From: a virus
Taxonomy: Duplodnaviria; Caudoviricetes
DNA length: 62,058 bases
Reading direction: 5' to 3' (one strand)
Virus record (IMG/VR): IMGVR_UViG_3300025127_000028
Coordinates: 1-62,058 of that record
A model generated the notes under the pieces. It searched no databases and was not told the origin of the DNA. It saw only the letters and a list, made by a program, of their open reading frames with translations. The position numbers and the translations under genes were made by a program. Shown here piece by piece: positions 5,293-33,926 of this stretch (positions within the stretch are counted from its first letter, which is position 1; each line of letters opens with the position of its first letter).

Positions 5293-5294
5293 TT
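5268..5294. terminator. Intrinsic terminator between the convergent arms
   Basis: CCCCTCGC-TTCG-GCGGGGGG followed by ATTCTTT. Confidence 0.75.
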
Positions 5295-8200: not shown

Positions 8201-11200
8201 CGGCGTAAAACGTTAGCAACAGAATTAAAGAACCTTTGCAATGCGCTGATAGGTTCACCTTTTACGTTTATCTGCGCTAATTTTTGTTGGAACTCTGGGT
8301 TGCTGAATGTCTCCGCTACAAATTCATCTACGTTCTGTGACCCGTATGCAGTGTCTAATGAGTCTTTCACTTCATTAAATAATTTGGTGAGTTGTTTGGT
8401 CAACGGGTGTGACTTGTTAGCCAGTGTCTGTGATGTCGCAGCGTGTGTCATCTCATGCAGAATAGTATGTGGGTTGATACCAGTTTCTGCGTTGAGTGTT
8501 ATTGTGTTGGTCGCGGGGTCAAACATACCAGCCACAGGGTTACCAGATTCATCAGCAACGAACTGCCTTACTTGCACTTTTGTATCGCCAGCAACTTTAG
8601 CCAACGCCCCTGCAAGTTGTGATATACGCCCACTAGGAGATGTAGACTGTATCGCCCGGAGCGCTTCTACTAACTTACCTTGTCTTAACAAGTTACCAAT
8701 CACAGGATGTGTCGGTATGTCGAGACCTACTACAGCGTTCTCGCGTAAATAGTCAGGAAGCAAGTCTAAATCTTCTTGTGTAAACTCAAGAAACTCACTT
8801 TCAGCTTTAGCACGGCGTTCTTGTGCTATATCTTTTTTAATCAGTTTATCTCTTAGCTCTTGTTCTTTTGCTTTCTTACGCTCAGTCTCCACAAAATCTA
8901 CGCTACTATTCTGTCGTCTAATTGAATCTTCTAACGACTGTTGGTGCATTTCAACTAACTTATCTACAGCCGCGTTGGTTTCTGCACTTAAATTTTCTTT
9001 TACCCATTGCCTAGCACGAGTGGCTTCTTTTTTACCTGTATTTGCAAAATACTCCTTTTCGCCCTTACTCATATCCGGTGTGGATCTAAATACATCTTTC
9101 GCAAATACTGTTTCATGCGCTATAACTTCTAACGCATCGTTTGGGTTTTCTTGTTTACTAAAATAAGTTTTTGCGGCTCTAGCTTTTGTTACACTCGCCT
9201 TTTCCCCTGTCTGTTTATCTTTTACTTCAGTCTTTATTAACTCAAGTATTTTAGTGTCATCTGCTTCAGTAGTATTTACATCTAGTGATATAGATTCTGT
9301 GTCACCATCCTTATTTATAAATGTGGCCTTTGGCACTTCCTTAAACTTGCCAGTGTAAAATTTAACGTCCGCTGCTTCTGCTTCGGGAGAAGTCGGGTCT
9401 GCGGCTATTCTTTGTTTTCTTCGTATGTTGGACAGGCTTTTTATTTCTTCTGCAATTAATTTTTGTATTTCTTTTTTAGTTTTAGGTACTTTTTTAGGCA
9501 CAGCTTTCTTTATTGTCGGCTTTTTAGGTGCGGCTTTCTTTGCCTTTGGTTTTGGCTCTGGCTTTGCTTCTGGCTCTACCTGTGGCTGTACCTGTGGCTG
9601 TACCTGTGGCGCAGCTTTTGCCCTTACTGCTTCCTGTGGTCTCTCAATAGCTACCGCTGGTGCTTCAGCAATGGGTTCAACTGTAGGGATGGCAGTGGGT
9701 GTGACCGGCTCTAGTGGAGTTGCGCGGCCTGCTGTTCTTCTTGTAGGAGTTGCGGTTTCTACCTGTGGCGCAGTTTTTTCAGCTAATATATTAGGTAGAT
9801 TATCTTTTAAATTTTTAAAGTCTGGACTTTTCCCAATAACTTTGTTGTCGTTATTTGTGTCTACAGCTTCCCAATCTACACGCTTTCGCACCACTATGCT
9901 GGGTTGGTTTTCTACAACATATTCTGCGTTTTCTGGAGATATACCACCTCTCATATCTCCTGTTTTTGCTGCTTTGGTTTTTCTTAATTTAACAGGTTTC
10001 TCTGTATCTGGCGCAGCTTCTCTAGATGCGAATAAATCGAGCTGCTCATTTATCTTCTCCTTCGTCTCTGGAGATACTTGAGGGTTTGCCGCATGCTCTC
10101 TTAACTGCTGTTGTACTTCAGGCGTGGTAACATCTTTACCTTTAATGCGATTACGGAGAGGCGACGCAGGCTTGATAGCCAAACCATCCATGTCCTCTTC
10201 AGTTACGCTGCGAGTCTGGGCAGCAGTGAGCCTTTCAGGCACAAACGGTACTTCGGTGCGTGGTTTTCTCTCACCTTCTACTACTTGAAATTGTTTAGGT
10301 TTTGCTTCGGGTTCTTCCACTGGTGCAGGACGTTCCGCCCGTTGCACATCTATTGCGCGTTTGATAGTGTTAGTTTCTGACTCGTTAGGTTGTGTATTAG
10401 CGATACCTTGAGCTTCAAGCGCACGGGAAAAATTCTTAGTTAGTGTATCTTCTTGTTTTGTAGGAGTATTTTCAATTACGTCTTGTAATATTGCTGTGCG
10501 TCGTCGTTCTGTGGCTTGCTGTTGTTGTGTGTCTAACTGCCCTGCAATAGTTTCAACGTCGGAAGCCGCACGAGTTTCTTGTTCTTGCCTAAGTTCAGCT
10601 TCTGCTTTGGCATCTTCATCTAGCATAGCCTGTATTTGTGCAGTCTCATCAGCATCAACCATCTCTCGTAGCTGTGCGGACTCTGCTTCTTCAATCATAT
10701 CTGGTTGCACAGCTCTTGGCTGTGGAGTAGTGGGTACTCGTTGGTCAAAAAGATCTAGCTGTGTATCTTGCTCTGGCGCAGTTCCTAACTCGCTATCAGG
10801 GAACAACTCTCCTTGATCAGGTGCAACTACAGGAGCTGTGGGGGCCGTACCAAGGTCTTCACCTGCAAACAACTCACCTTGTGGATCAGGTTCAGCTTGA
10901 TCTGTTGGGGTAGGACTAACACCCCTACGTTTAGTAAGAGCATCAACAAACAGTTGTGTGATAGCTCCAGCACCTGCGCCATACCCTGCGTTTTCTGCTG
11001 TGCCTGCAAGAAGACTGACTTCTTCGTTATATCCAGACTCAACAAGATTCTGAAGTAAGTTTGCTGTAGCTTCTTGTGCGCCTTCAAGTCCACCTGTGGT
11101 AAGAGCATTACCTACACGCTCACTAATGGTCTCTACTTTATCCGGCCCAAGTTTTTCTAAAACCTTACCAACCACAGGTACATCAACAGCTTTGACAAAC

Positions 11201-11829
11201 CTAGTAATAGGTAAAATTTCAAGGATGCCAATAGGGGCAGCTTTTAGTGCGGCAGAAGATCGTTCTTCTTCAGTGGCTCCAGCAGCTCTAGCACGCTCAC
11301 TACCTTCACCAGCAGCGGCACTAACACCAAGCAACCCAGCAACACCTGTGGCAGCGGCAGTAGCGGCGGCGGCGGGCGCAGCATAGGCAGTAAGCGCAGC
11401 AGGCACAGCAATACCAGCAACAGACCCCAATGCCCTTGAAAGGTTATATGTTATAGAGTCTTCGTCTCCACCTTCAGGGCGTATAGCTTCTGCAGTGGCT
11501 TTAATTTTATCTCGTACTGTGTTTTCAGCTTCTTCATCAAGAAGTGCAGCAATACCAAGTGAGGCTGTTTCACCCACATCAATGGCACCAGCACCAAACC
11601 CTTTAGCAATATTTTCAAAAAACCCAGCGTCTTCTTCTTCTTTTTGATTATAGAGCGCATTTATTGAGGCAAGTTGTTTTTCTTCAAGATCTCTTTGGAG
11701 GGCAGCTGTTTCGTTTTCACGGAGTTTGTTTTGCACAATCGCCATGATAGCTTCAGGAGAAGCATCTGCGGGACCACGAACTCTATGCACGACTCCATCT
11801 GCATCTCTTACTTTATGTACAACACTCAT
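5293..11829 (-). CDS. Giant internal virion/ejection protein of large-polyvalent type with a zincin metallopeptidase domain (2178 aa)
   Basis: GMFDP..ILHEMTH..DEFVAE HExxH motif; Gly/Ala hydrophobic segments; last gene of the structural arm. Confidence 0.7.
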   Translation of the reverse strand: MSVVHKVRDADGVVHRVRGPADASPEAIMAIVQNKLRENETAALQRDLEEKQLASINALYNQKEEEDAGFFENIAKGFGAGAIDVGETASLGIAALLDEEAENTVRDKIKATAEAIRPEGGDEDSITYNLSRALGSVAGIAVPAALTAYAAPAAAATAAATGVAGLLGVSAAAGEGSERARAAGATEEERSSAALKAAPIGILEILPITRFVKAVDVPVVGKVLEKLGPDKVETISERVGNALTTGGLEGAQEATANLLQNLVESGYNEEVSLLAGTAENAGYGAGAGAITQLFVDALTKRRGVSPTPTDQAEPDPQGELFAGEDLGTAPTAPVVAPDQGELFPDSELGTAPEQDTQLDLFDQRVPTTPQPRAVQPDMIEEAESAQLREMVDADETAQIQAMLDEDAKAEAELRQEQETRAASDVETIAGQLDTQQQQATERRRTAILQDVIENTPTKQEDTLTKNFSRALEAQGIANTQPNESETNTIKRAIDVQRAERPAPVEEPEAKPKQFQVVEGERKPRTEVPFVPERLTAAQTRSVTEEDMDGLAIKPASPLRNRIKGKDVTTPEVQQQLREHAANPQVSPETKEKINEQLDLFASREAAPDTEKPVKLRKTKAAKTGDMRGGISPENAEYVVENQPSIVVRKRVDWEAVDTNNDNKVIGKSPDFKNLKDNLPNILAEKTAPQVETATPTRRTAGRATPLEPVTPTAIPTVEPIAEAPAVAIERPQEAVRAKAAPQVQPQVQPQVEPEAKPEPKPKAKKAAPKKPTIKKAVPKKVPKTKKEIQKLIAEEIKSLSNIRRKQRIAADPTSPEAEAADVKFYTGKFKEVPKATFINKDGDTESISLDVNTTEADDTKILELIKTEVKDKQTGEKASVTKARAAKTYFSKQENPNDALEVIAHETVFAKDVFRSTPDMSKGEKEYFANTGKKEATRARQWVKENLSAETNAAVDKLVEMHQQSLEDSIRRQNSSVDFVETERKKAKEQELRDKLIKKDIAQERRAKAESEFLEFTQEDLDLLPDYLRENAVVGLDIPTHPVIGNLLRQGKLVEALRAIQSTSPSGRISQLAGALAKVAGDTKVQVRQFVADESGNPVAGMFDPATNTITLNAETGINPHTILHEMTHAATSQTLANKSHPLTKQLTKLFNEVKDSLDTAYGSQNVDEFVAETFSNPEFQQKLAQINVKGEPISALQRFFNSVANVLRRAMGMQTKPVDSALNQADKLIEAMLAPAPESRGAGRLYMQTMVPDKAKAIIDNMVKNTPTWDAAGIKRVKEVLADRFPDKAKNFMLGLLPINALVDVAKARIPMATKLEKLTFEASGKVTEMNSMIEPVVKRVSAWGSKNQDKLDAFNNVIYNSTLEQVDPSKPKSDYTGEKLDAWKAMQDDWNSLGEEGQAHYKSMRNTYKKLYDEMGRILKSKIDEGISDEPTRKKVFAEVYNALYDNGVIEPYFPLTRSGGYWLSYSARDPRTGNMEFYVEAFESKTDRREAQRVMEADPDAEAKDFQSFSNLSEVSYDKAPPTSFVNDVLQTLQTNNVDAEVKEQIMRLFLDSLPERSFAQSFRNRKGTLGFERDAIGALRKRTSSLSRQLVQMEYGQKISAVQKEIKEHVKTVEKNDDTSVLLANELDQRADWAKNPNVENWAQALTTGGFVMTLGANISSAVVNFSQLPMVVMPYLGGKYGYSETMKATGRAMRMFKNSGFKRTSETIGPDGKIKETTSATPSLDNYDFDDPNTPKEVKEYKVLAEVAGRMGQLNRSITYDMLDMDRIDSPMRKIGAVSGWIFHHGERMNRQVALMTAYDLELGAMRKAGKTINDAARTEAAEKAIYVTELTNGGAIATGAPRYAQRGIGKVMFLFKRFGISMTYHLAKLSKEAIKGSPADKLVARKQLAGTVGMAGIIGGAQGIPLMGAIGSVIDLIFGDEDEDDFDTTMRKFLGEGFYGGLGNYLLGVDVASRMGLSDLIFRDRLVQKDQSLFYDAIEMVGGPVVGTALNMERGVGMIADGNVERGIEAMSPAAIRNVLKSYRFATEGANTLRGDPIVGDIGAGHVFGQLLGFAPAEYTKQLQENARIKRKERAAGEQKSKLYKRYYVAARQGDTSEMEAIMKEIIKYNKRFPSTAITNKSFKQSMKAHQRTTSRMHHGIVINPRMRNELMEDAAEYDDTITLWQDLGIAD
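9578..9610. repeat. 12-bp tandem repeat (about 3 copies) encoding PQVQ linker
   Basis: ACCTGTGGCTGT repeated. Confidence 0.85.
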
Positions 11830-13703
11830 TAGTCAGTGCCTTCGTAACTTAACCCACTGCTAGGATCTCCATATGTGCCTGCTATTCTGGCCTCAATATC
11901 TTTTGCTCTATCTGCTAGAGGTTTAAGAGATATAATAATAGCAGAGTTCATTTCTTCTCTAAGAGCCTGCACCACAGATTGATCTGTACCCATTGGAAGG
12001 TTTGCAATTCTGTCTTGATATATTTTTTCATATTTACTACGAACATCACCCATATACTTAGCCACTTTTGATAGAGTATCTTCTGCTTTACCACGATCAA
12101 GTTGCTCAATCTTAAGCATGTCAAGCTCTGCTTGGAGGTTCATCTTCCTATCAGAGGTTTCAGCTTCTAAGTTTGCTACTGCAACTTTAACTTCTTGACT
12201 AGCGTTATTTATGGCTGCGTCCAAAGTACGCCTTGCATCTCGATCTTCCGCTTCCATGTTTGCTGTTTCGGCTTGTAGTTTGCTTTTTGCATTATCACTA
12301 AGCATACCTACTTGAGTCCTATTAAACTGTGTCATAGAACTGACGCCAGATCGTACATTTTCGTTTGCAATTTTATATGCTTCTTGTGCGGAAGAGAACG
12401 CTTTTTCTCTAATTCTTTGTTGTTCGTCTTCAAAAGAACGTTCTATACCTTGGCGTCCGAGCAAACGATTACGTTCTGCTAGTTCCTGTTGCGCTCTAAC
12501 ATCGGCTAACCCTTGAGATCCTCCTGCAAAAGAACCCGCTTTAGCTGTACCACGTAAAAATGCGGATAGTTGTTCCTGCTGAAGTTTTTTGGGATCAAGC
12601 TGCCGTGCATCTAAAGCAGCTAGAGCATCTTGTCTTGCTTTTTCTGCAGCTACACGATCAGAACTCATTCCGAGTTTGTCCAACCCATATGCCAAAGCGT
12701 CATCACGCGCTGCTTTTGGATCTTGCTTCATCAGACCTTTTATACCTTTTAAAGTATCGTCGGTTGAGCTAGCGTCTGACATTTTTACGGCATATCCTGC
12801 AGGGTCAAGAAATTTAGTACGTGCTGCTGGCGCGTCTACTTGCCCTAGACCTGAATCTAAAGTATTTATCCCTGCTGCTACTGGCGGCTTTACTGGCGGG
12901 GGTTGCGCGGCTGGCGGCTCATCATCATATTCGTCTCCCATACCAAAAACTGCTTGTGGTGGTGTTTGTCCTCTACCCTGCAAAGCTCCCGTGCCAAGAA
13001 CATTACCTTGCATGCCTTGAGTTAGTACATTCATTTTGCCCCTGTCTTTATAATCACCCCCAACCATTCTTGTTGGACCAGATTTAAGTGCATCAAAACC
13101 TAATGCAGGATTCATAGCTTTAGGATCTCTAGCTATATCTCTAGCTGCGCGTACCTTTTGAGCTTTAGCAGCGTCATCGTCTAAAGTAGCAGGATCTTTA
13201 TATCCCGGTTTACCTAGTATAGCTTGTATCATTTGATATTTTGTTGACTCGTCTATATCAGTTCGCGCACGAATCTCGGCAATTTCGTCTGCTTGTGCTT
13301 GCCCACCCGTTCTAAACCCAACAATACCGCCCTGTGCCATACGTTGCATATTTGGTCTTGGTTGTGCAGCCAGACCCTGTGGTGATCCTGCACTAGCTAT
13401 ACGTTGCATGTTAGCTTGTTGCCTTGCTTGGTTGTTCTTCATTACACCGGCAACGCCTTTTACTATTTCATCTTTTCTTTGACCCACTGCTTTTTGTTCT
13501 AATTGTTGCGCAATAGTTCCGGGCTGTTGCTGCATTCTTAATTGCATATCTCGTGATATTTCATCTCTTTCTTTTGTTATTTGTTCAAGCGCAAGTAAAT
13601 CAGTAAGCTCTTTACTCATCCTACTGCGTTGTTGCAACGCCGCTGGATTGCTACGGTAGGCATCTTTTTTATCTTCAACTAATCGGTCAATACCATAAGA
13701 CAT
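11829..13703 (-). CDS. Putative internal virion protein (624 aa)
   Basis: Helical, Q/A-rich; MAQGGIVGF motif; ejection-protein cluster. Confidence 0.6.
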   Translation of the reverse strand: MSYGIDRLVEDKKDAYRSNPAALQQRSRMSKELTDLLALEQITKERDEISRDMQLRMQQQPGTIAQQLEQKAVGQRKDEIVKGVAGVMKNNQARQQANMQRIASAGSPQGLAAQPRPNMQRMAQGGIVGFRTGGQAQADEIAEIRARTDIDESTKYQMIQAILGKPGYKDPATLDDDAAKAQKVRAARDIARDPKAMNPALGFDALKSGPTRMVGGDYKDRGKMNVLTQGMQGNVLGTGALQGRGQTPPQAVFGMGDEYDDEPPAAQPPPVKPPVAAGINTLDSGLGQVDAPAARTKFLDPAGYAVKMSDASSTDDTLKGIKGLMKQDPKAARDDALAYGLDKLGMSSDRVAAEKARQDALAALDARQLDPKKLQQEQLSAFLRGTAKAGSFAGGSQGLADVRAQQELAERNRLLGRQGIERSFEDEQQRIREKAFSSAQEAYKIANENVRSGVSSMTQFNRTQVGMLSDNAKSKLQAETANMEAEDRDARRTLDAAINNASQEVKVAVANLEAETSDRKMNLQAELDMLKIEQLDRGKAEDTLSKVAKYMGDVRSKYEKIYQDRIANLPMGTDQSVVQALREEMNSAIIISLKPLADRAKDIEARIAGTYGDPSSGLSYEGTD

Positions 13704-13712
13704 AATTAACCC

Positions 13713-14600
13713 CTAACTTGGAAAGAGTGTATTATACAAGTCCATGATACCGCCACCCGCGCTTGTAATTTTGGATAGCGTGCTAGGCTCTGCATAAGTA
13801 TAAGACTGCGTTGCTAATGGTAAACCTTGCAACAATGATTGCATGTATTGCACTTGTTTATATGGAAAATCTCGCTCTTCTTTAAATTGTGCATAATCTG
13901 CGGCAACACCTTCAGACTCAATAGCCCGTTGTGCTGCACCTAAATCTGCCTGCTTAGTTAATGCTGCTAGACCATATGTATTTGCTGCATCTTGTGCTGT
14001 CTGTTGTCTACCTTGTTCTACGTTAAACTGTTGCTGTGCCTTATCAAACGCAGTGGAATACCCGGCACCTGTAATACCAGCAAGATTCTGTAGTAAATTA
14101 CGGCGATTCTCGGCGTCCATAATAGCTTGACGTGACCCACCAAATGCACCTGCTCGTGTTAACCTACCTGCATCTGCCGTGCGTTGGATATCTGATTGAC
14201 GACGTGCTTCATCAATTTGAGGTTGTAGCGCGGCTTGTATGTAGGGGTTCATAAACTTTTGCGCAGTGCCAGCATCAGTAAAGCTGCCCGGAGTAAACGC
14301 CCCCATTTGCCCCGTAGGCACATTCAACCCAGCTATGCCCTGAAATGCTGCTGTTTGCGGCGCAGATGCCCCCGCAGTAAGAGGTCCACCGTACCCTTGG
14401 TATCCCATAGAGCCAAGAGCCTGACCACGACCAAGCATCTCGGTAACGTAAGGGCCAACATAGTTAGAAAGCGCAGATTCTTGCCCAGTTATCTGCCCTA
14501 CAGTAGGGTCTGCAGCTACCGTGGAGGCTACCCCAAGTCCTGTTTGCGCAGCGGTTGAGGTGGGTGTTTGCACGCCTGCTGTGGTGTTTGCTGTTGACAT
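13713..14600 (-). CDS. Putative DNA-transfer/ejection protein (295 aa)
   Basis: FMNPY and AGAFGGSRQ motifs typical of phage internal proteins. Confidence 0.6.
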   Translation of the reverse strand: MSTANTTAGVQTPTSTAAQTGLGVASTVAADPTVGQITGQESALSNYVGPYVTEMLGRGQALGSMGYQGYGGPLTAGASAPQTAAFQGIAGLNVPTGQMGAFTPGSFTDAGTAQKFMNPYIQAALQPQIDEARRQSDIQRTADAGRLTRAGAFGGSRQAIMDAENRRNLLQNLAGITGAGYSTAFDKAQQQFNVEQGRQQTAQDAANTYGLAALTKQADLGAAQRAIESEGVAADYAQFKEERDFPYKQVQYMQSLLQGLPLATQSYTYAEPSTLSKITSAGGGIMDLYNTLFPS

Positions 14601-14611
14601 AACTTATCCTC

Positions 14612-15661
14612 CTATGCCGGTAGGAATTCTTCAGGGTCGATCTCCTTACCCTGTTTGGTACTACCTGTGCGTGCTTTACGTACTCTATCCATCATATCTT
14701 CCAATACTTTAGCACCTGCGTCCGAGTTGCCATTGCCAAGATGACTTACTACGTCTGCTGGTATTACAAACTCACCATCACTAAGTGCTGCTGGCTGCTC
14801 ACCGTCTATCATGGCAGGCTTCTCATCAGCCATACCATCAGTGGCGCCGTCTAGATATTTACCTTCTTTAAGTCCAGCAATACCACCTTCAGCAAATCCT
14901 ATATAACTTAAAGCCTTGCCACCAGCCTCTTTAAGTCTATCTATCTGTTCGCCTATGTCGCCAGTTATATTGCCTAGATCAAACCCTGAACCTTTACCTT
15001 CATTAACATACCCCAAAAACACATTACCTTGAAACATACCCATTTTACCGTTTGGCATTCTACGTGTTTTTATAGGTTTATTAGATTTAAAAGCCGCTTG
15101 TTGTATAGATGTATTCTCTGGAACATTTATTTTACGTCCAGCAGCGTATCCAACGATACCTCCAGAGGCTATTTGTTGTGTGGGTTGAGTAGCTTGAGCA
15201 GCTTGGGCAGCTTTTGCGGCGGCAGCGGCAGCGGCGGCATCTTCAGCGGCACGAATTGGAGCTAGTTGTTGTCCTTGCCTATTTTGTGCAGCTAGGTTTG
15301 CTCTATTCAAAGCTGCTAGTCCAGCAGCCTCTGCTGTAGGATCACCTCCGCTAAAACTAACATCGGTAAAGTATCTCTGCCCACCACTGCCCGGACGGCG
15401 ATCTGGGTCATATGTGTTGGGGACTTGCATACGAGTGGCTGTGTATGTAGGGATTTTACCTTGATACCCACTTGGCCCTCTACCTCCACCACCTCCACCA
15501 AAAAGATCGTATCCAAATATATCAGCAACTTGACCTGCGGCTCCAAGCGCTGCCGATCCTGCGCCGATCATCTTACCATAGTCGTAATCATACCCTACGA
15601 CATCTCCACTTTCATATTCTGGAGTTCTAAAAGGATCTAGAATACTATCAAAAATACTCAT
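14612..15661 (-). CDS. Putative virion protein (349 aa)
   Basis: C-terminal DG..D..PA.LSDGEFVIPADVV domain; AxGG motifs. Confidence 0.6.
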   Translation of the reverse strand: MSIFDSILDPFRTPEYESGDVVGYDYDYGKMIGAGSAALGAAGQVADIFGYDLFGGGGGGRGPSGYQGKIPTYTATRMQVPNTYDPDRRPGSGGQRYFTDVSFSGGDPTAEAAGLAALNRANLAAQNRQGQQLAPIRAAEDAAAAAAAAKAAQAAQATQPTQQIASGGIVGYAAGRKINVPENTSIQQAAFKSNKPIKTRRMPNGKMGMFQGNVFLGYVNEGKGSGFDLGNITGDIGEQIDRLKEAGGKALSYIGFAEGGIAGLKEGKYLDGATDGMADEKPAMIDGEQPAALSDGEFVIPADVVSHLGNGNSDAGAKVLEDMMDRVRKARTGSTKQGKEIDPEEFLPA

Positions 15662-18600
15662 TATTTGCCCCCAATGAGCCGTAATAGCTCTTCATTAGCA
15701 TCAACGACTCCACCCTGTGCATACGGAGACCTGTAGAATGCGTCCTGCCCAGAGTCTCTAAAAATACTTGCAAAGTCATAAGGATCGCCAATTTCAGCCA
15801 CAGGTTGCGATTTTACCTGCGTTATCCTACCTGCATCTTCCGCTATCATACTCTGCAAATCCCTAACATTACGTTTTTTAGCTTCATCTTCTACTTGTTG
15901 GGCTATTTGCATTTGCGCATCTATTTGTTGTTGTGTTTGAGCATCTAACTGCGCTTGCATTTGCGTTTGAGCATCCATTTGTGCCTGTGTTTGCGCATCT
16001 ATTTGTGCAAATATCCCTGTAGCAGGTTGAAAATTTGAATCTTGCGCAAAGGCAACGTCTTGGCCTTGTAGTGCATTATTTAACAGGTTCTGATCGTTTA
16101 TGTCAACAATACCATCGCCTGTAACGTCATATCCTAACTGTTCATCTGTAAATTTAAATGTACTAGGGTCGGTGAGAGCTTCTTGTTGTGCTATAAGGTC
16201 GGCAACAAAGTCTATATCTACGTCAGTAACCTCGGTTGCAGGTTTGCCAATAATCTCTGCTATAGACTGAATATTAACATCAAGTCCTGCAACATCAGTA
16301 GCAATATCTCCAACCTGATCACCAAGTGTATCAACACCCCCTAGTTTTTCGCTAAGTTGTCCAACATCATATCTTAACGCGTTATACTGCGCTGCGGGCA
16401 ATGCCTCTTTGAGTCGTGCATCTAGTTCTTCTTGGTTATATTGCCCAACCAGTGCGTCCACATCTTCTGGTCTTACATCAGGCAAACCAGCTTTTTTATA
16501 GGCTTCTTGAACTTCTGTGGCGTCCACCATAAAGGGATCAGCCGTTTCTATAACTTCTTTTAATGTATCTGTTTGCAACCCCTGTCTAACAAACTGATCA
16601 ACAAAATTATCTGGTAGTTTACTAACATCAAATCCTTCGCCTTCCAGTTCTGCTATTACTTCTTTTTCAGTAGTCAGTCTATCTTCAGCATAAGTTGTTA
16701 TAGCCTGTTGTTGTTCAGTTTCGTTTACCTGCGCTACAAAAGTATTAATTTCATCTTCTGTTGGGTTGTACCCAAGGTCATCAAGATACTGTTTGGCTTC
16801 TTCGTAGGTTGTAGCCTGCTCATCGAACACACCAGTCTGCAGATTCTGTGTTTCTTGCGCTTCATCTTTTTGTCCTACATAATCTGCGGCCTGTTGTTCT
16901 GTAAGTGTCACACCCTCTGCAGCGGCTGCATCAATTATTTCTTGAGAATCCAGATATCTAGGGTCTACAAAATTATCTACTAAGGCTGCTAAATCTGCAT
17001 CAGCGTTGGCACCGGTAAAGCCAGTAAGCTCGTCTTTTGTAAACTGATACGGTATGTTATTTTCTGTAACATAAGTTGCCGCTGCCTGTTCGGCCTCACC
17101 CGTGCTGGTATAATCTGTGTCAAATACTTGGTTTAAGATGTTTGACTGTACGGTGTTGTCGGATACGCCAAGATCGTTAAGCTGTTGTGTAACACCTGCT
17201 GCGTCTAACCCACCCTCATTCTGTACGACCTTACGCACTTCAGGATTAAACATAATCATTGCATTTGATACTACGTCACCTGTTGCGGCGCCTCCATATA
17301 TAGAACCTGCAACCGTACCGCCAGACAGTGCGCCAAGCACGGAGTTACTAACCACGTTGCCTACAACATCTCGTGTAGGATCTAACTGATACAGCTGTGA
17401 CTCTAGATAAGCTTGCGGCAGTCCTTCTTCTACAGCCTCTTGAGCGGTTTCTTTTGCTACGACATCAAAGGCTTCCGAGAAATTTTTACCACGTTTGCCG
17501 TTAAATATTGCCTTTTCAAAATCGTTGCCGCCTACACCCATAGTAGCAACAGTAGTAACTGCAGCGATTGTACCTGCAGTTATGGCCTTATCTAGTGCAT
17601 ATTCTTGTGCTTCTGCATCGGACATACCTGATTTAAGTGCTGTAGCATAAGCGTCATCATACGCACCGCCAGCCGTGCCACCAAAAGACTCTGATACATC
17701 CAGTACCCCCGCAGTTCCAATAGCGGCACGCTGACTCATCTTTTGTGCAAACTCTTCTCCAGCTTGCTTTAGCCCTGCTTTAACTACGTTAGCTGTACCA
17801 CCACTGGCTATTAGCACAGGAATTTCCTGTAGAAGTTCTTTTGCTATATACTCGGATGCAAAAGTGCCGGGATTAGCCATGGCTGCGCCACCGATAGCTT
17901 TAATTGTATTCCACGCTTTAGCAAACGTGGAGAGCGGCGTGCCGTCTGGGTTGGTAAGTAATTTACCATCTTTATCAAAATTAGCCTTACCGATAGTTTC
18001 TTGAATTTCCGCAGCGGCAGCTTTGTATTCTTCTGTTTTCATATCGCCAGCCATAGCGATAAGATTTTTTGCAGTTTTGCCTAGTGGAGTAGACTCTGGA
18101 TTAATGCCTGCAAGAAGCACCAGATTATTCATGCTATCAAGCAGCTCCCCGCCAGCATCAAGAACTACACCTGCAGTGTTTTTACCAAAATCGCTGCTAG
18201 CAATACTCTGTGCTGTTTCGGTGTTGGCTATGTAGGTAGCTACGTTCTTGGCAAACTCGTATTGCTGCATTAGGCCAGTTACACCTGCCTCTACTGCTTT
18301 ATCTACTGCGTCAGAACTAACGTTTGCAAGTGTATCTAAATATGAACCGGCGTTTGTTTCTTTTAAGGTTTGTAGTGGGGCATATATTGTTAATTCCGAC
18401 ATAGGTTTTCCATCTGAACCTATATTCAAATAGTTACCTTGCATATCTACTGTAGCTTCTCCCAGACCATCTGGATGAGCTACTTTTCTAACTAATGTGC
18501 CGTGTTTACTATCCCACTTAGGTATATTAAATTTAAGAGATACGTCCTCCCAATTCAGTAACCCTTCAGCATTAGTTGATACTCCTGCTTTACCAGTAAG

Positions 18601-20508
18601 AATGTCAAAATCGCTTACGTTATCGGGTTTGGTAATTGCCTGCACTTCATCTTTTTGTCCTTTTAGTGCAGCATTTGTAATTTTAATTTTTTCATCATTT
18701 GGTAGTTCATCATAACTAGATACTTCATACGCATCTAAAAGGTTTTGGAGTTGTTCTGGTGGCGTCACTTTAGGATTTTCAACTAAACTTTTACCAATGC
18801 TGTCTCTAAAAGTAGTGGCAATAGCGGCAGAACCATTTTCAATATCTTTTAACGACTGCAAGTTGCCTTCGCCATAAGCTAATGTTTGTTCTCGTAGAGA
18901 TTTAATTTGTGCAGGTGAAAGGTCTGTAATACTTAGCCCCAACACCTCAAGAGTGCCGTTCATAGAAGAGGCTAGTGCATTATCTAAAACTTGTTCGTAT
19001 TGAACAGCATTAACGGGCAAGTCGTTGTCCTTGCCTTCAGTAAGCCAGTGAAAACGCGCTTCATCGTCATCTAAATCACTTAAACCATTGACTTGTTTGT
19101 ACTCTTCAACATTAAACGAATCGTCAGTCATTGCTCGCACGTAGGCTTTCTGCGTAGCATTATCGACTTCGATCATTACATCGTCTAATTGGTCGGAACT
19201 AGATACAAGCTCATTCTTAAGATCTTGATATACTGCAGAATCAGCTTCAATGGCTGCAAATTGATCATCAATACTTTCTTTTAATGGGTCAGCAGCAGGT
19301 TTGAATACATCATTGTAGTATGTATCTACCTCTTTAGCGTAATCGTTAAACTGTTGCACCTTTGCGTTATATGAATCTACTAACCCGCTGTACGCGCTAC
19401 TATTTGGATCTGTGGCTTGTAAAGTTGCTCTAGCAGCATCTATTTCTGCTTTTAACTCATCTCGTGTATTTATTCTGTTTTGTAGCTCTCCAACATACCC
19501 ATTGTATGTTTGCACATCTTTACGGTACGCTTCATTTGCGGCATCAATCTTATTGGCTTGCGCTTCGGCCTTTTGATAATCACCAGTGACTTTATCAATA
19601 GTATTTTTTACGGTTTTATCAATAACCTTGTTAAGTTCTTGCGTCCCGTAGGCATTTATAGTTGCATATAAAGCATCAGATGCATCAGCTCCAGAGAATG
19701 TCGCATTGGCTACGTTTTGTACTGACGATGTAATTAAAGCAATCTGCCCATCTGTTAATGAGTCATCAGCATCTACAAAGCCTTTTACTGTTTCCGTAGT
19801 AACTTTACCTTTGATTACCGCATTCATAATAGTGGCACCAGTTACATCTTGCCCACTAAGAGCTGCGGTTAAAGTGTCTTCTACTATGTTTTTAACCACA
19901 GGATTTTGATCTAAGAAACTTTGTGTTTGCCCTACAGGTCCGGGGTCTCCAACGCCGCCGGGATCTCCTACTGCAGCTACAGTACTTCCACTTTTACCCC
20001 CAGATATTTGTTCATCAATATAACCAAGCCCTGCCTGCACACCCGCCTGCACACCACCCGTAACAAAGGCTTTGACAGGATCTTCTCCTCTTACTACCGC
20101 AGAAGCAGCACTTCCTGTTCCAGCACCAATAATTGACGCTGCGGTTGCACTGGCTCCCGCTGATGACGCGGCTTGCGCACCATATTTAGCTCCATACCCC
20201 GCTGCCTGCCCAGCCACATATGCTTTAGCGGAAGCCTCAAGAATGTCACCAAGATCTCCTCCTTGTATTGCTGTGTCTGCGCCCGACACCAAGGGTAACG
20301 CCCACCACTGACCAGACAGGGCGGCGGCAGTGTACGCAATAGCTCGTAGGGGGTCATCTAAAACAGCATCTACAACATCATTGACAGTATCAACAACTGG
20401 AACAACTATCTCGTCAAGAACCCAGTCACCTACATCACTGACAGTATCGCCAACCCACTTAACCGCTTTCTTAACGGCTTTTTTAGCTTTTTTCCACGGC
20501 TTACCCAT
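15661..20508 (-). CDS. Large acidic internal virion/ejection protein (1615 aa)
   Basis: Basic amphipathic N-terminus MGKPWKKAKK; Gly/Ala hydrophobic segments; EF-hand-like DVTGDGIVDIND; ends YAQGGVV. Confidence 0.6.
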   Translation of the reverse strand: MGKPWKKAKKAVKKAVKWVGDTVSDVGDWVLDEIVVPVVDTVNDVVDAVLDDPLRAIAYTAAALSGQWWALPLVSGADTAIQGGDLGDILEASAKAYVAGQAAGYGAKYGAQAASSAGASATAASIIGAGTGSAASAVVRGEDPVKAFVTGGVQAGVQAGLGYIDEQISGGKSGSTVAAVGDPGGVGDPGPVGQTQSFLDQNPVVKNIVEDTLTAALSGQDVTGATIMNAVIKGKVTTETVKGFVDADDSLTDGQIALITSSVQNVANATFSGADASDALYATINAYGTQELNKVIDKTVKNTIDKVTGDYQKAEAQANKIDAANEAYRKDVQTYNGYVGELQNRINTRDELKAEIDAARATLQATDPNSSAYSGLVDSYNAKVQQFNDYAKEVDTYYNDVFKPAADPLKESIDDQFAAIEADSAVYQDLKNELVSSSDQLDDVMIEVDNATQKAYVRAMTDDSFNVEEYKQVNGLSDLDDDEARFHWLTEGKDNDLPVNAVQYEQVLDNALASSMNGTLEVLGLSITDLSPAQIKSLREQTLAYGEGNLQSLKDIENGSAAIATTFRDSIGKSLVENPKVTPPEQLQNLLDAYEVSSYDELPNDEKIKITNAALKGQKDEVQAITKPDNVSDFDILTGKAGVSTNAEGLLNWEDVSLKFNIPKWDSKHGTLVRKVAHPDGLGEATVDMQGNYLNIGSDGKPMSELTIYAPLQTLKETNAGSYLDTLANVSSDAVDKAVEAGVTGLMQQYEFAKNVATYIANTETAQSIASSDFGKNTAGVVLDAGGELLDSMNNLVLLAGINPESTPLGKTAKNLIAMAGDMKTEEYKAAAAEIQETIGKANFDKDGKLLTNPDGTPLSTFAKAWNTIKAIGGAAMANPGTFASEYIAKELLQEIPVLIASGGTANVVKAGLKQAGEEFAQKMSQRAAIGTAGVLDVSESFGGTAGGAYDDAYATALKSGMSDAEAQEYALDKAITAGTIAAVTTVATMGVGGNDFEKAIFNGKRGKNFSEAFDVVAKETAQEAVEEGLPQAYLESQLYQLDPTRDVVGNVVSNSVLGALSGGTVAGSIYGGAATGDVVSNAMIMFNPEVRKVVQNEGGLDAAGVTQQLNDLGVSDNTVQSNILNQVFDTDYTSTGEAEQAAATYVTENNIPYQFTKDELTGFTGANADADLAALVDNFVDPRYLDSQEIIDAAAAEGVTLTEQQAADYVGQKDEAQETQNLQTGVFDEQATTYEEAKQYLDDLGYNPTEDEINTFVAQVNETEQQQAITTYAEDRLTTEKEVIAELEGEGFDVSKLPDNFVDQFVRQGLQTDTLKEVIETADPFMVDATEVQEAYKKAGLPDVRPEDVDALVGQYNQEELDARLKEALPAAQYNALRYDVGQLSEKLGGVDTLGDQVGDIATDVAGLDVNIQSIAEIIGKPATEVTDVDIDFVADLIAQQEALTDPSTFKFTDEQLGYDVTGDGIVDINDQNLLNNALQGQDVAFAQDSNFQPATGIFAQIDAQTQAQMDAQTQMQAQLDAQTQQQIDAQMQIAQQVEDEAKKRNVRDLQSMIAEDAGRITQVKSQPVAEIGDPYDFASIFRDSGQDAFYRSPYAQGGVVDANEELLRLIGGK

Positions 20509-20512
20509 AATG

Positions 20513-20974
20513 TTACCTTATAAGCTCTTCGCCAAGTTTTACATAAATTATGTACTCATCATCTTCTGTTACACCAATATACAATGCTGAATCTTCTGTT
20601 TTACGCAAACGTTTTTGCAGTATTTTCATAGCAGGTAATAACGTGTCATCTGCAAGGTCAGTGCTGTAATGTGTTACATTTTTTTCTTGTAGGTATTGTA
20701 GGTACTTAACAGAGTTATCAATAAAATTACGTCCAGTATCTATGTTAAATGCCCGACCTGCCATTTTATTCTTATTGTCTCCTTTCCCGCTATGAGCTAA
20801 AAACACTGTATTACCAATTTGTACAGTATCCGCGTTTTCCATAGCGCCCTCTGCTACAACAGATAACATTTGTGCCTGTATAGGTGGGTCATCCTCATCC
20901 TGTAATTGCTCTAGACTACGAATAATTATTTGAGGAATATCAAGTTCTTGTTGTTTACTATCTACTGTTTCCAT
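20513..20974 (-). CDS. Hypothetical protein (153 aa), possibly GNAT-like acyltransferase
   Basis: GAGG RBS; size, alpha/beta pattern and position just upstream of the ejection proteins (like T7 gp13); fold is inferred only. Confidence 0.45.
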   Translation of the reverse strand: METVDSKQQELDIPQIIIRSLEQLQDEDDPPIQAQMLSVVAEGAMENADTVQIGNTVFLAHSGKGDNKNKMAGRAFNIDTGRNFIDNSVKYLQYLQEKNVTHYSTDLADDTLLPAMKILQKRLRKTEDSALYIGVTEDDEYIIYVKLGEELIR

Positions 20975-20981
20975 ACTGCCC

Positions 20982-21260
20982 TCATGCTACTGCTGCTAAG
21001 ACGGCTTCTTCAGATTCAACATCTTTAGTTTTGTGCTTATTAATGTATGTTTGTAAGTCAGTTAAACTAGTCATTGGCATACCATCAATTTTTTCTTCTG
21101 ATATACCAAATACATCTGCAAGCAATGAACTAATAAGCATACAATCTAGACTATCTATATTTAACTCCTCCATTGTATCGTTAAGAGAAGTAGCCAATGC
21201 CTCTGGTTCTTTATATTTTGCCTCTGTTAACGTTATATTAAATATTTTTACAAAATCCAT
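20982..21260 (-). CDS. Acyl carrier protein-like protein
   Basis: 92 aa, acidic; ELNIDSLD with Ser37, then L.D.FGI, matching the phosphopantetheine attachment motif. Confidence 0.8.
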   Translation of the reverse strand: MDFVKIFNITLTEAKYKEPEALATSLNDTMEELNIDSLDCMLISSLLADVFGISEEKIDGMPMTSLTDLQTYINKHKTKDVESEEAVLAAVA

Positions 21261-21583
21261 TAACTAACCTCCAACAAACTTGCTACAACATGTAATCTGT
21301 TTGCAGTAGCTGCAGTAACTTTTATTATTTCACCAGTTTCTACTACAAGAGGAGCTGTCAATAGTTCTACTGTATTGTTTGCACTAACAGCTTTAGTTTT
21401 AAATATACTAAACACAGCATCGGAAGTGTTAGTGATTGTAATTGTTATAGTATCTGCATTGCCAGAATCTTCAGACACGAGTATGGATTTTATAATACCT
21501 GTAGTAAGTGCCGGTGCGGTGTATAACGTAGTCGCATTAGTTGTAGTAAGATCCACTTTTGCATTTTTATATACGTTTGCCAT
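21260..21583 (-). CDS. Small beta-rich virion protein (107 aa)
   Basis: MANVYKN..TTLYTAP pattern; TAATG coupling. Confidence 0.7.
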   Translation of the reverse strand: MANVYKNAKVDLTTTNATTLYTAPALTTGIIKSILVSEDSGNADTITITITNTSDAVFSIFKTKAVSANNTVELLTAPLVVETGEIIKVTAATANRLHVVASLLEVS

Positions 21584-21786
21584 TACCCTATAAACCACCC
21601 TACAGCGTCTGATTGATCAGATGTATTTGCATTCCTTATAGCTGTATCTAACTGACTAAAATATAAACGAAGAACGTTATTAAATTGTTCAAATTGTTGT
21701 CTATCATACTCTTCTGGTGCATACGGTAACGCTGGAGCGCGAAACGGAATATCATATCTTGTTGAATCAACTCCACGAGTAGGCAT
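21583..21786 (-). CDS. Small virion-module protein (67 aa)
   Basis: LP.AP.EY..LRLYF motif; translationally coupled at both ends. Confidence 0.7.
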   Translation of the reverse strand: MPTRGVDSTRYDIPFRAPALPYAPEEYDRQQFEQFNNVLRLYFSQLDTAIRNANTSDQSDAVGWFIG

Positions 21787-23642
21787 TAGCGCCTCCCATC
21801 AGGACGCATGTCCAGTCTTGGTGCGCCAAGCTGCCAAGTAACGCCCTCTGCAGAGGATTCTATCCGCATAGATAATTGTCTACCTCGCACTCTTACATTT
21901 ATTTGATCTGTAAATACCTCGACAGGAGAAGAAGCAGTGCGAGTAACTGTAGCGTTGTTTACCCCACCTACAGAAGGAGTAGAATGTATACCAGACCCAG
22001 AATTACGTAATGGTTTCAATGTCATGGTAACGACTGGACTAGTTGCTGTAGAACCATCAAAACTTACATCAGGTATTACTCTGTTTACGTGCATAAATTT
22101 GTGGCCGTCATCAAGATCAAATTCGGAAGATTCTATATATGCAGATATAGCAGCAGTGCTTGTGCCTTGATTGTCATCTATACCGCTCTCATGGTCCACC
22201 AAGTTGTTGTCGTAAGTTGCTGCTAACGGGCTATCACGTAGTCCAGAATCAAGCCAAGCAGTTCTAGCCAGAGTTCCATAATACCATATATCCTCTAAAT
22301 AATTGTATATTACGTATTTATCTATATTTGTTGCGCTCGTTGAACAATAGAACCACCAAGCTTCATGGAATGATTCATTTGTCCCTGCAAAAACTTGTGA
22401 ATATTGTTCTGTGTTAAAATCATTAAATACATACTTACGAACATCACATTTTAATGGTGCAGTTCGCCCATCATATTTATAAAATTTATCTTTACCCATC
22501 CAATAAGCAACACCATTAGCATAAGCCACAGCATTTTGAGATGATATGGATATATTTTCTCCAACAATAGATGCAGTCCACACGGCAGGGGCGCCTACAT
22601 ACTGTAATGAGTATAAAGAAGAGTCGGTCCATACAAGAACTTCCTGTCTAGACTGAGAAGCCGCTACTATTTTTGTACCTCTTGATAAACGTAAGCTACC
22701 AGCTTGGTTTGTGGCTGACGGTGTCCAATTTGTAGCATCTTCTTGATCAGACCACCTAAGTAATGTTGGATCTAATCCGCTGCTACCTATTTCGTTTGTA
22801 CCAAAACAAAATACAAATCTGCTTATATCAGACACTAATATTAAATTTTGCACCGTTGGAACGTCAGAAGCACCGCTACGACTGGACAATAAAACTGCGC
22901 GTGTCTCTACGCCATTTGTAGCATCCCAGTAATACACGCCACCACCTCTATGCCCGAGTATTAAATCCTCACCAAAGTTTGATTGTGACCAGAAACGTAT
23001 TTCTGTTGTAGATGACACACCAACACCCCAAGCACCTTGCCCCCACGATCCAGCACCCCAACCAGTTATAGGGATTGCAAAAGCATTACCTACATTTATC
23101 TGGTAAGCTGCAGATACTGAAGAACCTCCTCCAGTAGCACTAGAAGTAGCATTAGATGAAGCAGTTATGGTGTAAGTATTTGCAGCAGAAATAGCTGTTA
23201 AGCTAACAACAAACTCTCCATTTAAATCCAAGCCACCCACAGTAGATACGTTACTAAACGTAACATAGTCACCATTTTTATATCCACCGTTAGCATCTGT
23301 TACAGTCACAGTGGCAGAACCAGAAGTTGTAGTGAATGGGTTACTTAAAGTTACGGTGCTGCGTAAAGGTGTTACATCGTTATAGACCCCCACATTTTCT
23401 ATATAAAATTTAAGATGCGTGCCTATACCTATTAAATTTTGTTCTCCTAGAGTAACCCAGTTGTGTAGGGATCTAGCTACTCCAAGAAACGTAGCCGTTG
23501 ATATTTGTTGCCACCCACCTATTTTTTCTGGTAAACCCTGCCTAAATCTTATTTTGTCACCATCATAATAGCCACCCTCAGTAGAATAACGAGTTCCTTC
23601 ACGGTTTATACCAGCTTTTAAAGCTATTTTTTGCAGTGGCAT
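21786..23642 (-). CDS. Tail nozzle/packaged-DNA stabilisation protein (P22 gp10-like, beta-propeller)
   Basis: LRWSDQE..W repeats; C-terminal QINVRVRGRQ..DMRPDGRR. Confidence 0.7.
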   Translation of the reverse strand: MPLQKIALKAGINREGTRYSTEGGYYDGDKIRFRQGLPEKIGGWQQISTATFLGVARSLHNWVTLGEQNLIGIGTHLKFYIENVGVYNDVTPLRSTVTLSNPFTTTSGSATVTVTDANGGYKNGDYVTFSNVSTVGGLDLNGEFVVSLTAISAANTYTITASSNATSSATGGGSSVSAAYQINVGNAFAIPITGWGAGSWGQGAWGVGVSSTTEIRFWSQSNFGEDLILGHRGGGVYYWDATNGVETRAVLLSSRSGASDVPTVQNLILVSDISRFVFCFGTNEIGSSGLDPTLLRWSDQEDATNWTPSATNQAGSLRLSRGTKIVAASQSRQEVLVWTDSSLYSLQYVGAPAVWTASIVGENISISSQNAVAYANGVAYWMGKDKFYKYDGRTAPLKCDVRKYVFNDFNTEQYSQVFAGTNESFHEAWWFYCSTSATNIDKYVIYNYLEDIWYYGTLARTAWLDSGLRDSPLAATYDNNLVDHESGIDDNQGTSTAAISAYIESSEFDLDDGHKFMHVNRVIPDVSFDGSTATSPVVTMTLKPLRNSGSGIHSTPSVGGVNNATVTRTASSPVEVFTDQINVRVRGRQLSMRIESSAEGVTWQLGAPRLDMRPDGRR

Positions 23643-33281: not shown

Positions 33282-33926
33282 TTAAGCTACCGGCGTACGA
33301 GCTTGCCCAGAACGGTAGTAATCTTGTCGTAATTTACCATCTCCAGTGCGTTGTAGTAATCCAATAGCTTGTAAGTATCGTTTTTCATACATAGCAACCA
33401 TATCAGGCTCACCTTTCATAAACCGAATAGCTTCCATAAGTGTGCCGTTAAGAAGTGCAGTATCAAAGTTATCTCCTAAATATGTACCGCCAGCTGTCAC
33501 TATGGATGTAGGATACTTAGCGTATATATGTTCAATCTCATAATTTTGATCTGGGGTTGGAGCTAACATTAGCTTTACGATAGATCCTCCAGTGCTATGG
33601 TATGCGTAGAACTTAGGTAGTCCATACTTTGCGCTGGTGTTTACAGGGTAAGCGTCACGTAGGAAATTAACGTCTTTATTTAACAAATAGTGGGTAGTGC
33701 TACTACTAATCACAGCTAGGCTGTAGGTATATAAATACCCGTCTGGAGTAGTATACAACTTGTTAGTGGCAGTTAAAGGCCCGCTATCTACATTACGCAT
33801 GGCTGGTAGTTCAACAGAGTTAAATATTAACTGTTCTGCCTGCTGTGCAAATAACTCGTGTTGACCCGACGTAAACGTCTGTTCACAGATATCCTCAACA
33901 TTTGCCTTTAAATTAGTGTAGTTCAT
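33282..33926 (-). CDS. Putative head-tail adaptor (214 aa)
   Basis: G.PKFYA..APTPD..Y motif. Confidence 0.6.
   Translation of the reverse strand: MNYTNLKANVEDICEQTFTSGQHELFAQQAEQLIFNSVELPAMRNVDSGPLTATNKLYTTPDGYLYTYSLAVISSSTTHYLLNKDVNFLRDAYPVNTSAKYGLPKFYAYHSTGGSIVKLMLAPTPDQNYEIEHIYAKYPTSIVTAGGTYLGDNFDTALLNGTLMEAIRFMKGEPDMVAMYEKRYLQAIGLLQRTGDGKLRQDYYRSGQARTPVA

Follow-up and report, generated by a model that had tools for sequence, protein, structure and literature searches.

IMG/VR virus record IMGVR_UViG_3300025127_000028, analyzed here as a whole (62,058 bases, CheckV 100%) and called the window, belongs to an uncultured marine phage of podovirus-like (short-tailed) type. Within the virion module of its late operon, three genes follow one another on the minus strand: one for an acyl carrier protein (ACP), one for a 153-amino-acid (aa) protein with the fold of GCN5-related N-acetyltransferases (GNAT), and one for a 1615-aa giant protein of ejection type. 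We tentatively propose, at somewhat below an even chance, that the GNAT-fold protein is an acyltransferase that is fed by acyl-ACP and acts on the ejection apparatus. The identities on which this proposal is built are firm, namely the ACP, the GNAT fold, a position equivalent to that of internal virion protein A (IVP-A) in other podoviruses, and the giant ejection-type protein.

The first gene of the trio encodes a genuine, phage-specific ACP, and this assignment is firm. Taken singly, its sequence stays below the gathering cut-off of the Pfam family PP-binding (PF00550; 14.5 vs 20.8 bits, E 0.042), its relative P0001 has no Pfam match, and its close homologues are found in metagenomes only (11 proteins). 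A profile built from 13 members of the family, some of them distant and taken from related loci, gave 105 PDB matches at E ≤ 10, and the 60 rows listed contain acyl carrier proteins only (best E 2.7e-5); in the match to Escherichia coli ACP (E 7.5e-5), the serine of the DSL motif is aligned with the attachment serine. This serine, residue 37, lies in the motif I-D-S-L-D, of which D36-S37-L38-D39 is invariant in 13/13 relatives. The AlphaFold2 (AF2) model (predicted local distance difference test score, pLDDT, 90.9) contains helices 3–14, 37–51, 55–58 and 66–76, with helix II beginning at Ser37. A VIA search of the whole PDB with this model returned acyl or peptidyl carrier proteins in each of the best 50 rows (Z 8.2–6.2), with 70–83 residues aligned at a root-mean-square deviation of about 2.5–3. 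The protein is acidic (isoelectric point 4.2). In the window's clade, which has lost or lacks the ketosynthase (KS) gene described below, the ratio of nonsynonymous to synonymous substitution rates (dN/dS) ranges from 0.065 (L003 vs L004) to 0.107, with saturated synonymous sites in the comparisons that give values up to 0.107; by this sequence measure the window's ACP is under purifying selection. A reading as a tail-assembly chaperone (Pfam Phage_TAC_7, E 0.005, 17.3 vs 25 bits) was ruled out, since neither the family profile nor the fold points to anything but carrier proteins. The initial annotation of the window, made from its letters alone, had called the gene ACP-like; the profile, the invariant serine and the carrier-protein fold matches in 50/50 rows make it a real ACP, and the description given there of the sequence (three genes, DSL with Ser37, a place in the tail operon, tight coupling) was correct on every point checked.

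No phosphopantetheinyl transferase is encoded in the phage genome, and the window has no ketosynthase, with 0 matches to PF02801 and none in a Pfam scan of its 54 open reading frames (ORFs); the same scan found no other genes for lipid metabolism, fatty-acid synthesis (FAS), biosynthesis or export. If the ACP works, host enzymes must therefore load it, in agreement with the loading route that the initial annotation had assumed.

For the second gene of the trio, a GNAT fold is well supported by modeling. The 153-aa protein has no Pfam or PHROG family. It belongs to a family of 40 close proteins and 295 representatives at E ≤ 0.001, and each of the 150 representatives listed is either a fragment or a stand-alone protein of about 150 residues. 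In its AF2 model, built from a 27-sequence alignment (pLDDT 94, predicted template-modeling score 0.87), the helices (H) and strands (E) are H13–24, H32–43, E48–53, E56–62, E70–77, H81–97, E102–107, H113–123, E130–135 and E141–146. This order, alpha-alpha-beta-beta-beta-alpha-beta-alpha-beta-beta, is that of GNATs with no clear first strand. VIA, run against 48,161 PDB representatives, returned 109 chains at Z ≥ 8, and the best 50 are all GNAT-type by title (Z 10.5–8.8), with 112–133 residues aligned in the GNAT-type matches. The structural neighbors include the N-terminal acetyltransferases RimI, Ard1, Naa60, Naa80, NatC and NatD, as well as TofI, an acyl-homoserine lactone (AHL) synthase (Z 9.2), and FemA (Z 9.1); we take TofI, FemA and a further neighbor, Ebony, to be of GNAT type. 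The acyltransferase fold that the initial annotation had put forward as putative is thus predicted with high confidence. Foldseek against BFVD placed phage proteins without names first (best template-modeling score, TM, 0.85), and an ESM Atlas look-up gave only viral clusters without names. A BFVD entry named 'Internal virion protein A', at rank 21 (TM 0.43), was too weak to use.

Conservation in this family is concentrated in a few positions. Across 103 sequences, N55 is invariant and S6, L11, G54, T56, F58, N77, D79, N83 and N87 are conserved in at least 90%; these residues are also kept in a distant, mostly ACP-bearing subfamily. In the model, N77–N87 runs from the last part of strand 4 into the first part of helix 3, presumably the site at which GNATs hold the pantetheine and pyrophosphate of the cofactor. 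The loop itself reads N77-I-D-T-G-R-N83 in the window and N-x-D-T-x-x-N-F-x-x-N family-wide. Judged from the model, these features suggest that the protein may be catalytic.

The ACP and GNAT genes are tightly linked across relatives, which supports the initial annotation in its pairing of the two. Starting from the ACP, 59 IMG/VR loci were compared (several are the same contigs as in the GNAT-side sample below): 46 have the order ACP-KS-GNAT, 5 have ACP-GNAT, 6 end inside the ketosynthase gene and 2 end right after the ACP gene, and the GNAT gene comes next after ACP or ACP and KS in 51/51 evaluable loci. Starting from the ketosynthase (best 80 of 405 relatives), an ACP gene precedes and a GNAT gene follows in 75, and the other 5 run off the contig. 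This ketosynthase, encoded between the two genes and 366–372 aa long, matches Pfam Ketoacyl-synt_C (E 1e-15), with C132, H272 and H305 invariant in 10/10 sequences. The distant GNAT subfamily, ~25% identical to the window's protein, was sampled at 80 loci, of which 64 have ACP-KS-GNAT (3 of them assigned from the locus listing, not by script), 4 have KS-GNAT at a contig start, 11 have GNAT only and 1 has ACP-GNAT (L244). By these sequence comparisons the ACP-KS-GNAT cassette is widespread, and it may be the older state.

Where the ketosynthase is missing, ACP and GNAT stay adjacent. This is seen in three separate ACP lineages: the window's clade, L244, and the pair L094/L107, whose ACPs are 81–84% identical to KS-linked ACPs and 30% identical to the window's. 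On the ACP tree at least 2 changes are needed, and the starred branches force only 1. The adjacency also occurs behind two upstream architectures, with genes for 618+67+112 aa in the window and for 645+207/224 aa in L003/L004. The genes are packed as in a translationally coupled unit: the stop codon of the preceding 112-aa gene overlaps the start codon of the ACP gene by a single base (TAATG, 21258–21262), 7 nt separate the ACP stop from the start of the 153-aa gene with a GAGG that spans the stop, 4 nt separate the 153-aa stop from the 1615-aa start, and base 15661 is common to the 1615-aa stop and the start of the next gene. Because of the invariable adjacency, the retention after KS loss, the coupling and the selection on the ACP, a functional link between ACP and GNAT appears likely but unproven. 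A complex prediction for the two proteins (score 0.14 vs a mark of 0.32, run without controls) speaks neither for nor against binding.

The GNAT side was sampled with 80 IMG/VR loci that contain a close homologue, together with MW202545.1 and the window; one locus (L008) is too short to judge. Wherever an ORF is available on the 3' side (79 loci), it encodes a large protein, up to 2269 aa long, and its start is –16 to +7 nt away from the GNAT gene. An ACP gene is present in 19/81 evaluable loci, 15 with ACP-KS-GNAT and 4 with ACP-GNAT (the window, near-identical L002, L003 and L004). Cultured phages with the 153-aa family were not found: tblastn of two members against 50,697 phage records returned only MW202545.1, itself uncultured. 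A search for cultured relatives with the ketosynthase likewise found none, and the remaining ketosynthase matches look like FabB, in bacterial-type records. DSL-LC04 and HTVC023P, two cultured phages that share the 618-aa protein, gave no GNAT, ACP or KS profile match in the regions examined. Both (L280 and L281, respectively) have genes for 2OG-Fe(II) oxygenases within the tail-gene region.

The place of the 153-aa gene has a counterpart in T7. In the parts of Hardies et al. 2016 (PMC4819975) used here, the T7 ejection operon consists of IVP-A to IVP-D and directly follows the tubular tail B gene; T7 IVP-A and a small nonstructural gene found at the equivalent place in phiRIO-1-like phages have HHpred matches to acetyltransferases, and P22 and epsilon15 have IVP-A homologues in that position. 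IVP-A is described there as required for morphogenesis and not kept in the virion, that is, as a nonstructural assembly protein, and these parts of the paper give no activity for it. A protein that is required yet nonstructural and acetyltransferase-like would fit an enzyme that acts during assembly, as far as this source goes (PMC4819975). Like T7 IVP-A (gp13, PF11090), the 153-aa protein is the product of a small gene that lies after the last tail gene and ahead of the first ejection protein, and both have an acetyltransferase-like fold, predicted by AF2 and VIA for the former and taken from the same parts of PMC4819975 for the latter. The order of 618-aa tail protein, small genes, 153-aa gene and giant protein is kept in the window and in the 79 related loci with a downstream ORF.

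Sequence homology to gp13 was sought and rejected, with an hhalign probability of 0.3% for a single gp13 and a 22-sequence gp13 alignment alike; PF11090 is not among the Pfam matches listed, and PF11039 (DUF2824; P22 gp14) has 0 matches in the genome at E ≤ 10. A comparison of the first 250 residues of the giant protein with T7 gp14 was also negative for homology (probability 0.07%). The two operons differ in that the next gene encodes a small IVP-B in T7 and a 1615-aa protein here, and an ACP or ketosynthase adjoining IVP-A is not described in the literature searched. The 153-aa gene is thus an IVP-A-class counterpart by position and fold, not by detectable sequence.

From these elements we infer catalysis, donor, target and biological effect along the following lines. 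Host AcpS would turn the phage ACP into its holo form, and an acyl chain would be attached to it by host fatty-acid enzymes; the phage ketosynthase with its Cys-His-His, present in many relatives, would extend or create this chain. During virion assembly, the GNAT would move the acyl group from the carrier to an amine on one component of the ejection machinery. The most likely target would be the adjoining giant protein, at a site other than a conserved Gly2. Relatives without a phage ACP would use host acyl-ACP or acyl-CoA. Extended by analogy, the IVP-A-class GNATs of podoviruses in general might be acyl-ACP-dependent acyltransferases that lipidate the first ejection protein for entry through the host envelope, with some phages supplying the ACP, and often the ketosynthase, for a particular chain; in this general form we regard the idea as doubtful.

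Three sets of results, from the giant protein, from the predicted enzyme and from its distribution, weigh against the proposed acyl transfer. The 1615-aa protein, which has no Pfam or PHROG family, begins MGKPWKKAKKAVKKAVKWVGD, followed by an acidic amphipathic stretch, a DDP motif and a hydrophobic Gly/Ala-rich 'ATGNAWAxPLI' segment. Among 25 aligned N-termini, P37, V38, D52, P53, G141, D143 and A147 are invariant; the extreme N-terminus ahead of this conserved region varies in sequence, and in length by up to about 50 residues. The initial annotation had seen a membrane anchor of the myristoylation type in Gly2 and a basic patch. Such an anchor is not supported by the sequence comparison, because Gly2 is not conserved, the basic patch is limited to one sub-lineage and a small residue 2 is usual in this phage. 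A lack of Gly2 conservation is among the results that the initial annotation itself had named as refuting its proposal. Residue 2 is G in 23, A in 20, S in 19, P in 6 and F in 5 of the 79 close loci, with other residues in the rest, and Gly in only 1/15 close ACP+KS loci; in the distant subfamily (n = 79) it is S in 50, G in 25, A in 2, K in 1 and M in 1. A small residue (G/A/S/T/P) stands there in 74/79 close and 77/79 distant loci, and is common among the ORFs of this phage anyway (37/60). The patch, KKAKKAVKK, is confined to the window's own sub-lineage, and within the first 250 residues no invariant or near-invariant column holds a lysine. Acylation of the N-terminus or of lysines in general may still take place.

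Two peculiarities of the giant proteins were observed in individual relatives. In MW202545.1 (L001), a freshwater record, the protein after the GNAT (12443–14362) is only 639 aa long, starts MGGVV and contains a long cysteine-rich stretch with many C-x-x-C-like spacings, unlike the marine giants. In L073, L076 and L079, which have ACP and KS, an extra N-terminal extension of ~50 residues precedes the conserved WVGD region and consists of repeated acidic 'V-x-E/D-V-V' units.

On the side of the predicted enzyme, the difficulty lies in its sequence. Classical GNATs carry motif A, Q/R-x-x-G-x-G/A, in the loop between strand 4 and helix 3; this motif is missing from the 153-aa protein, where a polar conserved loop sits at the right place. 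His102, present in at least 90% of the near family, is not conserved in the wide family. None of 103 family members matches an acetyltransferase family among the Pfam matches listed (25 of 42 families, E ≤ 0.1), and a profile of the 153-aa family found no GNAT in the PDB, only an alpha-amylase at E 0.22. Foldseek against the PDB left the fold unclear, with RNase E chains weakly on top (E 4.8e-4, TM 0.36) and GNATs at TM 0.45–0.56; at the level of the model, the assignment is settled by the alignment-based whole-PDB search.

The distribution points in the same direction. In 62/81 evaluable close loci, the GNAT and the giant protein occur with neither ACP nor KS. The phage ACP is therefore accessory to the system rather than its core, and the main job of the GNAT does not need it. 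On the GNAT tree, the ACP+KS loci fall on one side of a branch with support 97, and the group with ACP alone (support 80) sits inside a clade of 67 rows that is otherwise without ACP. Only 2 state changes are required, so much of the adjacency may reflect common descent rather than repeated selection. Of the lipidation system outlined in the initial annotation, the ACP, the GNAT fold and the linkage have thus held up, and Gly2, the basic patch and the ACP as core component have not. In the full-text literature searched, supplementary tables aside, neither an acylated phage ejection protein nor a phage ACP-KS-GNAT cassette was found. An N4 ejection-protein paper (PMC13434306) nowhere uses the terms acetyltransferase, acyl, GNAT or myristoyl, and an ejection-protein review (PMC8954989) nowhere uses acetyltransferase or acyl.

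These same results feed the main rival explanation, in which the GNAT is a non-catalytic assembly factor or chaperone of IVP-A type for the giant ejection protein, and the ACP, with or without KS, is an unrelated accessory aimed at host fatty acids that was inserted once, at an operon junction, and inherited. The many relatives without ACP, the 2 changes on the GNAT tree, the lack of a canonical CoA motif and the failure to match GNATs at the sequence level would all be expected in that case, as would the naming of IVP-A as a nonstructural assembly protein (PMC4819975, in part). In a 2026 preprint (10.64898/2026.03.01.708874), host FabZ is the predicted binding partner of a phage ACP, and a modulating influence on host lipid metabolism is suggested. 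Against an unrelated accessory, however, the ACP is never apart from the GNAT in 51/51 and 75/75 evaluable loci, adjoins it still in each of the three lineages without KS, keeps to it through the swap of upstream genes, and is coupled so tightly that no space is left for a separate promoter or terminator. A non-catalytic factor would, moreover, have to explain why the polar residues conserved family-wide cluster, in the model, at the canonical cofactor site. We hold this explanation to be unlikely, though not strongly so.

Less probable still is an ordinary acetyl-CoA-dependent N-acetyltransferase, similar to RimI/RimJ, that acts on the N-terminus or lysines of the ejection protein with no part for the ACP as donor. 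Many of the top structural neighbors of the model are N-terminal acetyltransferases, a small residue 2 in nearly all loci of both samples is what a processed N-terminus would show, and the GNAT of most relatives has no phage ACP beside it. A small residue 2, however, is common in the ORFs of this phage anyway, the extreme N-terminus varies in length by up to ~50 residues, and the classical acetyl-CoA motif is missing. The constant ACP/KS neighborhood of the GNAT would also go unexplained.

The acyl-ACP-using GNAT-fold neighbors TofI and FemA raise a different prospect, that ACP, KS (where present) and GNAT make a small molecule, such as an N-acyl amino acid or an AHL-like compound, or modify a component of the host envelope. 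An ACP with an intact Cys-His-His ketosynthase would give 3-oxoacyl-ACP, the donor type of AHL synthases. The GNAT, however, is a core gene that heads the ejection operon without exception in the loci examined, the place held elsewhere by IVP-A, and the genome has no other biosynthetic or export genes, so we give this prospect only a slim chance. GNAT-ACP loading pairs exist in polyketide synthases, and the highest-scoring neighbor of the modeled ACP is a donor ACP from the curacin pathway (Z 8.2), with the GNAT-carrier complex SbzI-SbzG also among its neighbors; a reversed direction, in which the GNAT loads the ACP from malonyl-CoA in the style of curacin synthase and the product is used elsewhere, is nevertheless very improbable, as most relatives have the GNAT but lack a phage ACP that it could load, the genome encodes no downstream enzyme for a loaded carrier to serve, and the structural rows lie less than 1 Z unit apart, so that the curacin ACP is not singled out.

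An ACP that never leaves its GNAT and is kept when the ketosynthase is lost frames a concrete test: does an acyl group pass from the carrier to the ejection protein? If it does, this would be the first system for lipidation of virion proteins in phage, T7 gp13-type proteins would gain a biochemical function, and phage DNA-ejection proteins would be, like RTX toxins, membrane-active proteins that acylation activates. If it does not, the ACP would be one more phage gene aimed at host lipid metabolism, in an unusual place. The question has weight for podoviruses at large in that the IVP-A-like gene that heads their ejection operons (T7 gp13 class) is needed for infectious particles, according to the part of PMC4819975 used.

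The trio is embedded in a typical virion module. The minus strand carries genes for terminase, portal, capsid, SU10-type adaptor, tail fibre and lysozyme, and the plus strand carries replication genes. The lysozyme gene and the gene for the 618-aa tail/virion protein lie 5' of the trio, and more genes for large internal proteins lie 3', giving the operon order 618, 67, 112, 92 (ACP), 153, 1615, and then 349, 295, 624 and 2178 aa (Table 1). Homologues of the 618-aa protein are annotated as stabilization, tail or virion structural proteins in Phage DSL-LC04, Pelagibacter phage HTVC023P, and Roseobacter and LUZ24-like Pseudomonas phages. A gene of similar size is found in the same place in all related loci; with the 618-aa gene the tail section closes, ahead of the ejection genes. 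The 67-aa protein has no Pfam or PHROG match. The 349-, 295-, 624- and 2178-aa products are likely further internal or ejected proteins; no family was found for the first three.

Table 1. Genes of the late operon around the ACP and GNAT-fold genes
Feature	Position	Strand	Basis
618-aa tail/virion structural protein ('stabilization protein' type)	21786..23642	-	phrog_3287, E 2e-69
67-aa conserved small gene	21583..21786	-	61–81-aa ORF here in most related loci
112-aa conserved small gene	21260..21598	-	phrog_1276, E 1.1e-8; 106–114-aa ORF here in most related loci
Acyl carrier protein, 92 aa, predicted attachment Ser37 (DSLD)	20982..21260	-	Profile, invariant motif, AF2 fold, selection
153-aa GNAT-fold protein (predicted), IVP-A counterpart by position and fold	20513..20974	-	AF2 model, whole-PDB VIA search, gene order
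1615-aa giant internal/ejection-type protein	15661..20508	-	Conserved N-terminal region; directly 3' of the GNAT-fold gene
Four more packed operon genes (349, 295, 624, 2178 aa)	5293..15661	-	ORF map

Several further features of the record were observed. The 2178-aa protein (5293–11829, minus strand) contains an LPD39 'large polyvalent protein' domain (E 9.8e-13), and over its last 700 residues it matches phrog_10089, 'DarB-like antirestriction' (E 2.8e-85), so that a role against restriction after ejection is possible. Between the portal gene and the head genes there is a 127-aa Cpn10/GroES-like gene (41928–42311, minus strand; E 1.3e-6), and two paralogous SU10-type adaptor genes lie close together on the minus strand (33282–33926, E 1e-13; 34490–35170, E 1.1e-12). 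A 408-aa protein (51785–53011, plus strand) combines DUF2201_N metallopeptidase-like and VWA-like domains, with which the name of its PHROGs family, 'HNH endonuclease', is at odds. On the plus strand, a helicase C-terminal domain (3–479) runs off the left end and a SNF2/ResIII N-terminal part (60817–62058) runs off the right end. The two are probably one gene cut at the point of linearization. As they are in different frames and a search of the 62,058-base record for a terminal direct repeat of 10–399 bases found none, the record may lack a few bases.

The components can be set against several known systems. The carrier resembles AcpP of type II FAS, with a profile match to AcpP-type ACPs, and the relatives' ketosynthase resembles FabF/FabB in its Ketoacyl-synt_C domain and invariant Cys, His and His. 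Unlike E. coli ACP, the phage ACP is very divergent and has fewer acidic residues in helix II; unlike FabF/FabB, the ketosynthase is trimmed to about 370 aa; and unlike type II FAS, neither other FAS genes nor a phosphopantetheinyl transferase is encoded. In rhizobia, NodF and NodE, a dedicated ACP and a ketosynthase of KAS-II type, make an acyl chain that the N-acyltransferase NodA moves to an amine. The ACP-KS-GNAT order of the relatives recalls this set, whereas the acceptor there is a chito-oligosaccharide, the window itself is without a ketosynthase, and NodA is not, to our knowledge, a GNAT. In the RTX toxins, the acyltransferase HlyC takes its acyl group from host acyl-ACP and transfers it to pro-HlyA, and this acylation is needed for membrane activity. 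The 153-aa protein has no match to the HlyC family among the Pfam matches listed (25 of 42 families), and HlyC uses host ACP only, whereas this phage brings its own. As with HlyC, a putative acyltransferase is encoded by a small gene immediately ahead of the one for a very large protein, and the target of HlyC is membrane-inserting. HlyC thus serves, by analogy, as the working model for the phage operon, with acylation of the phage protein as the proposal that follows from it.

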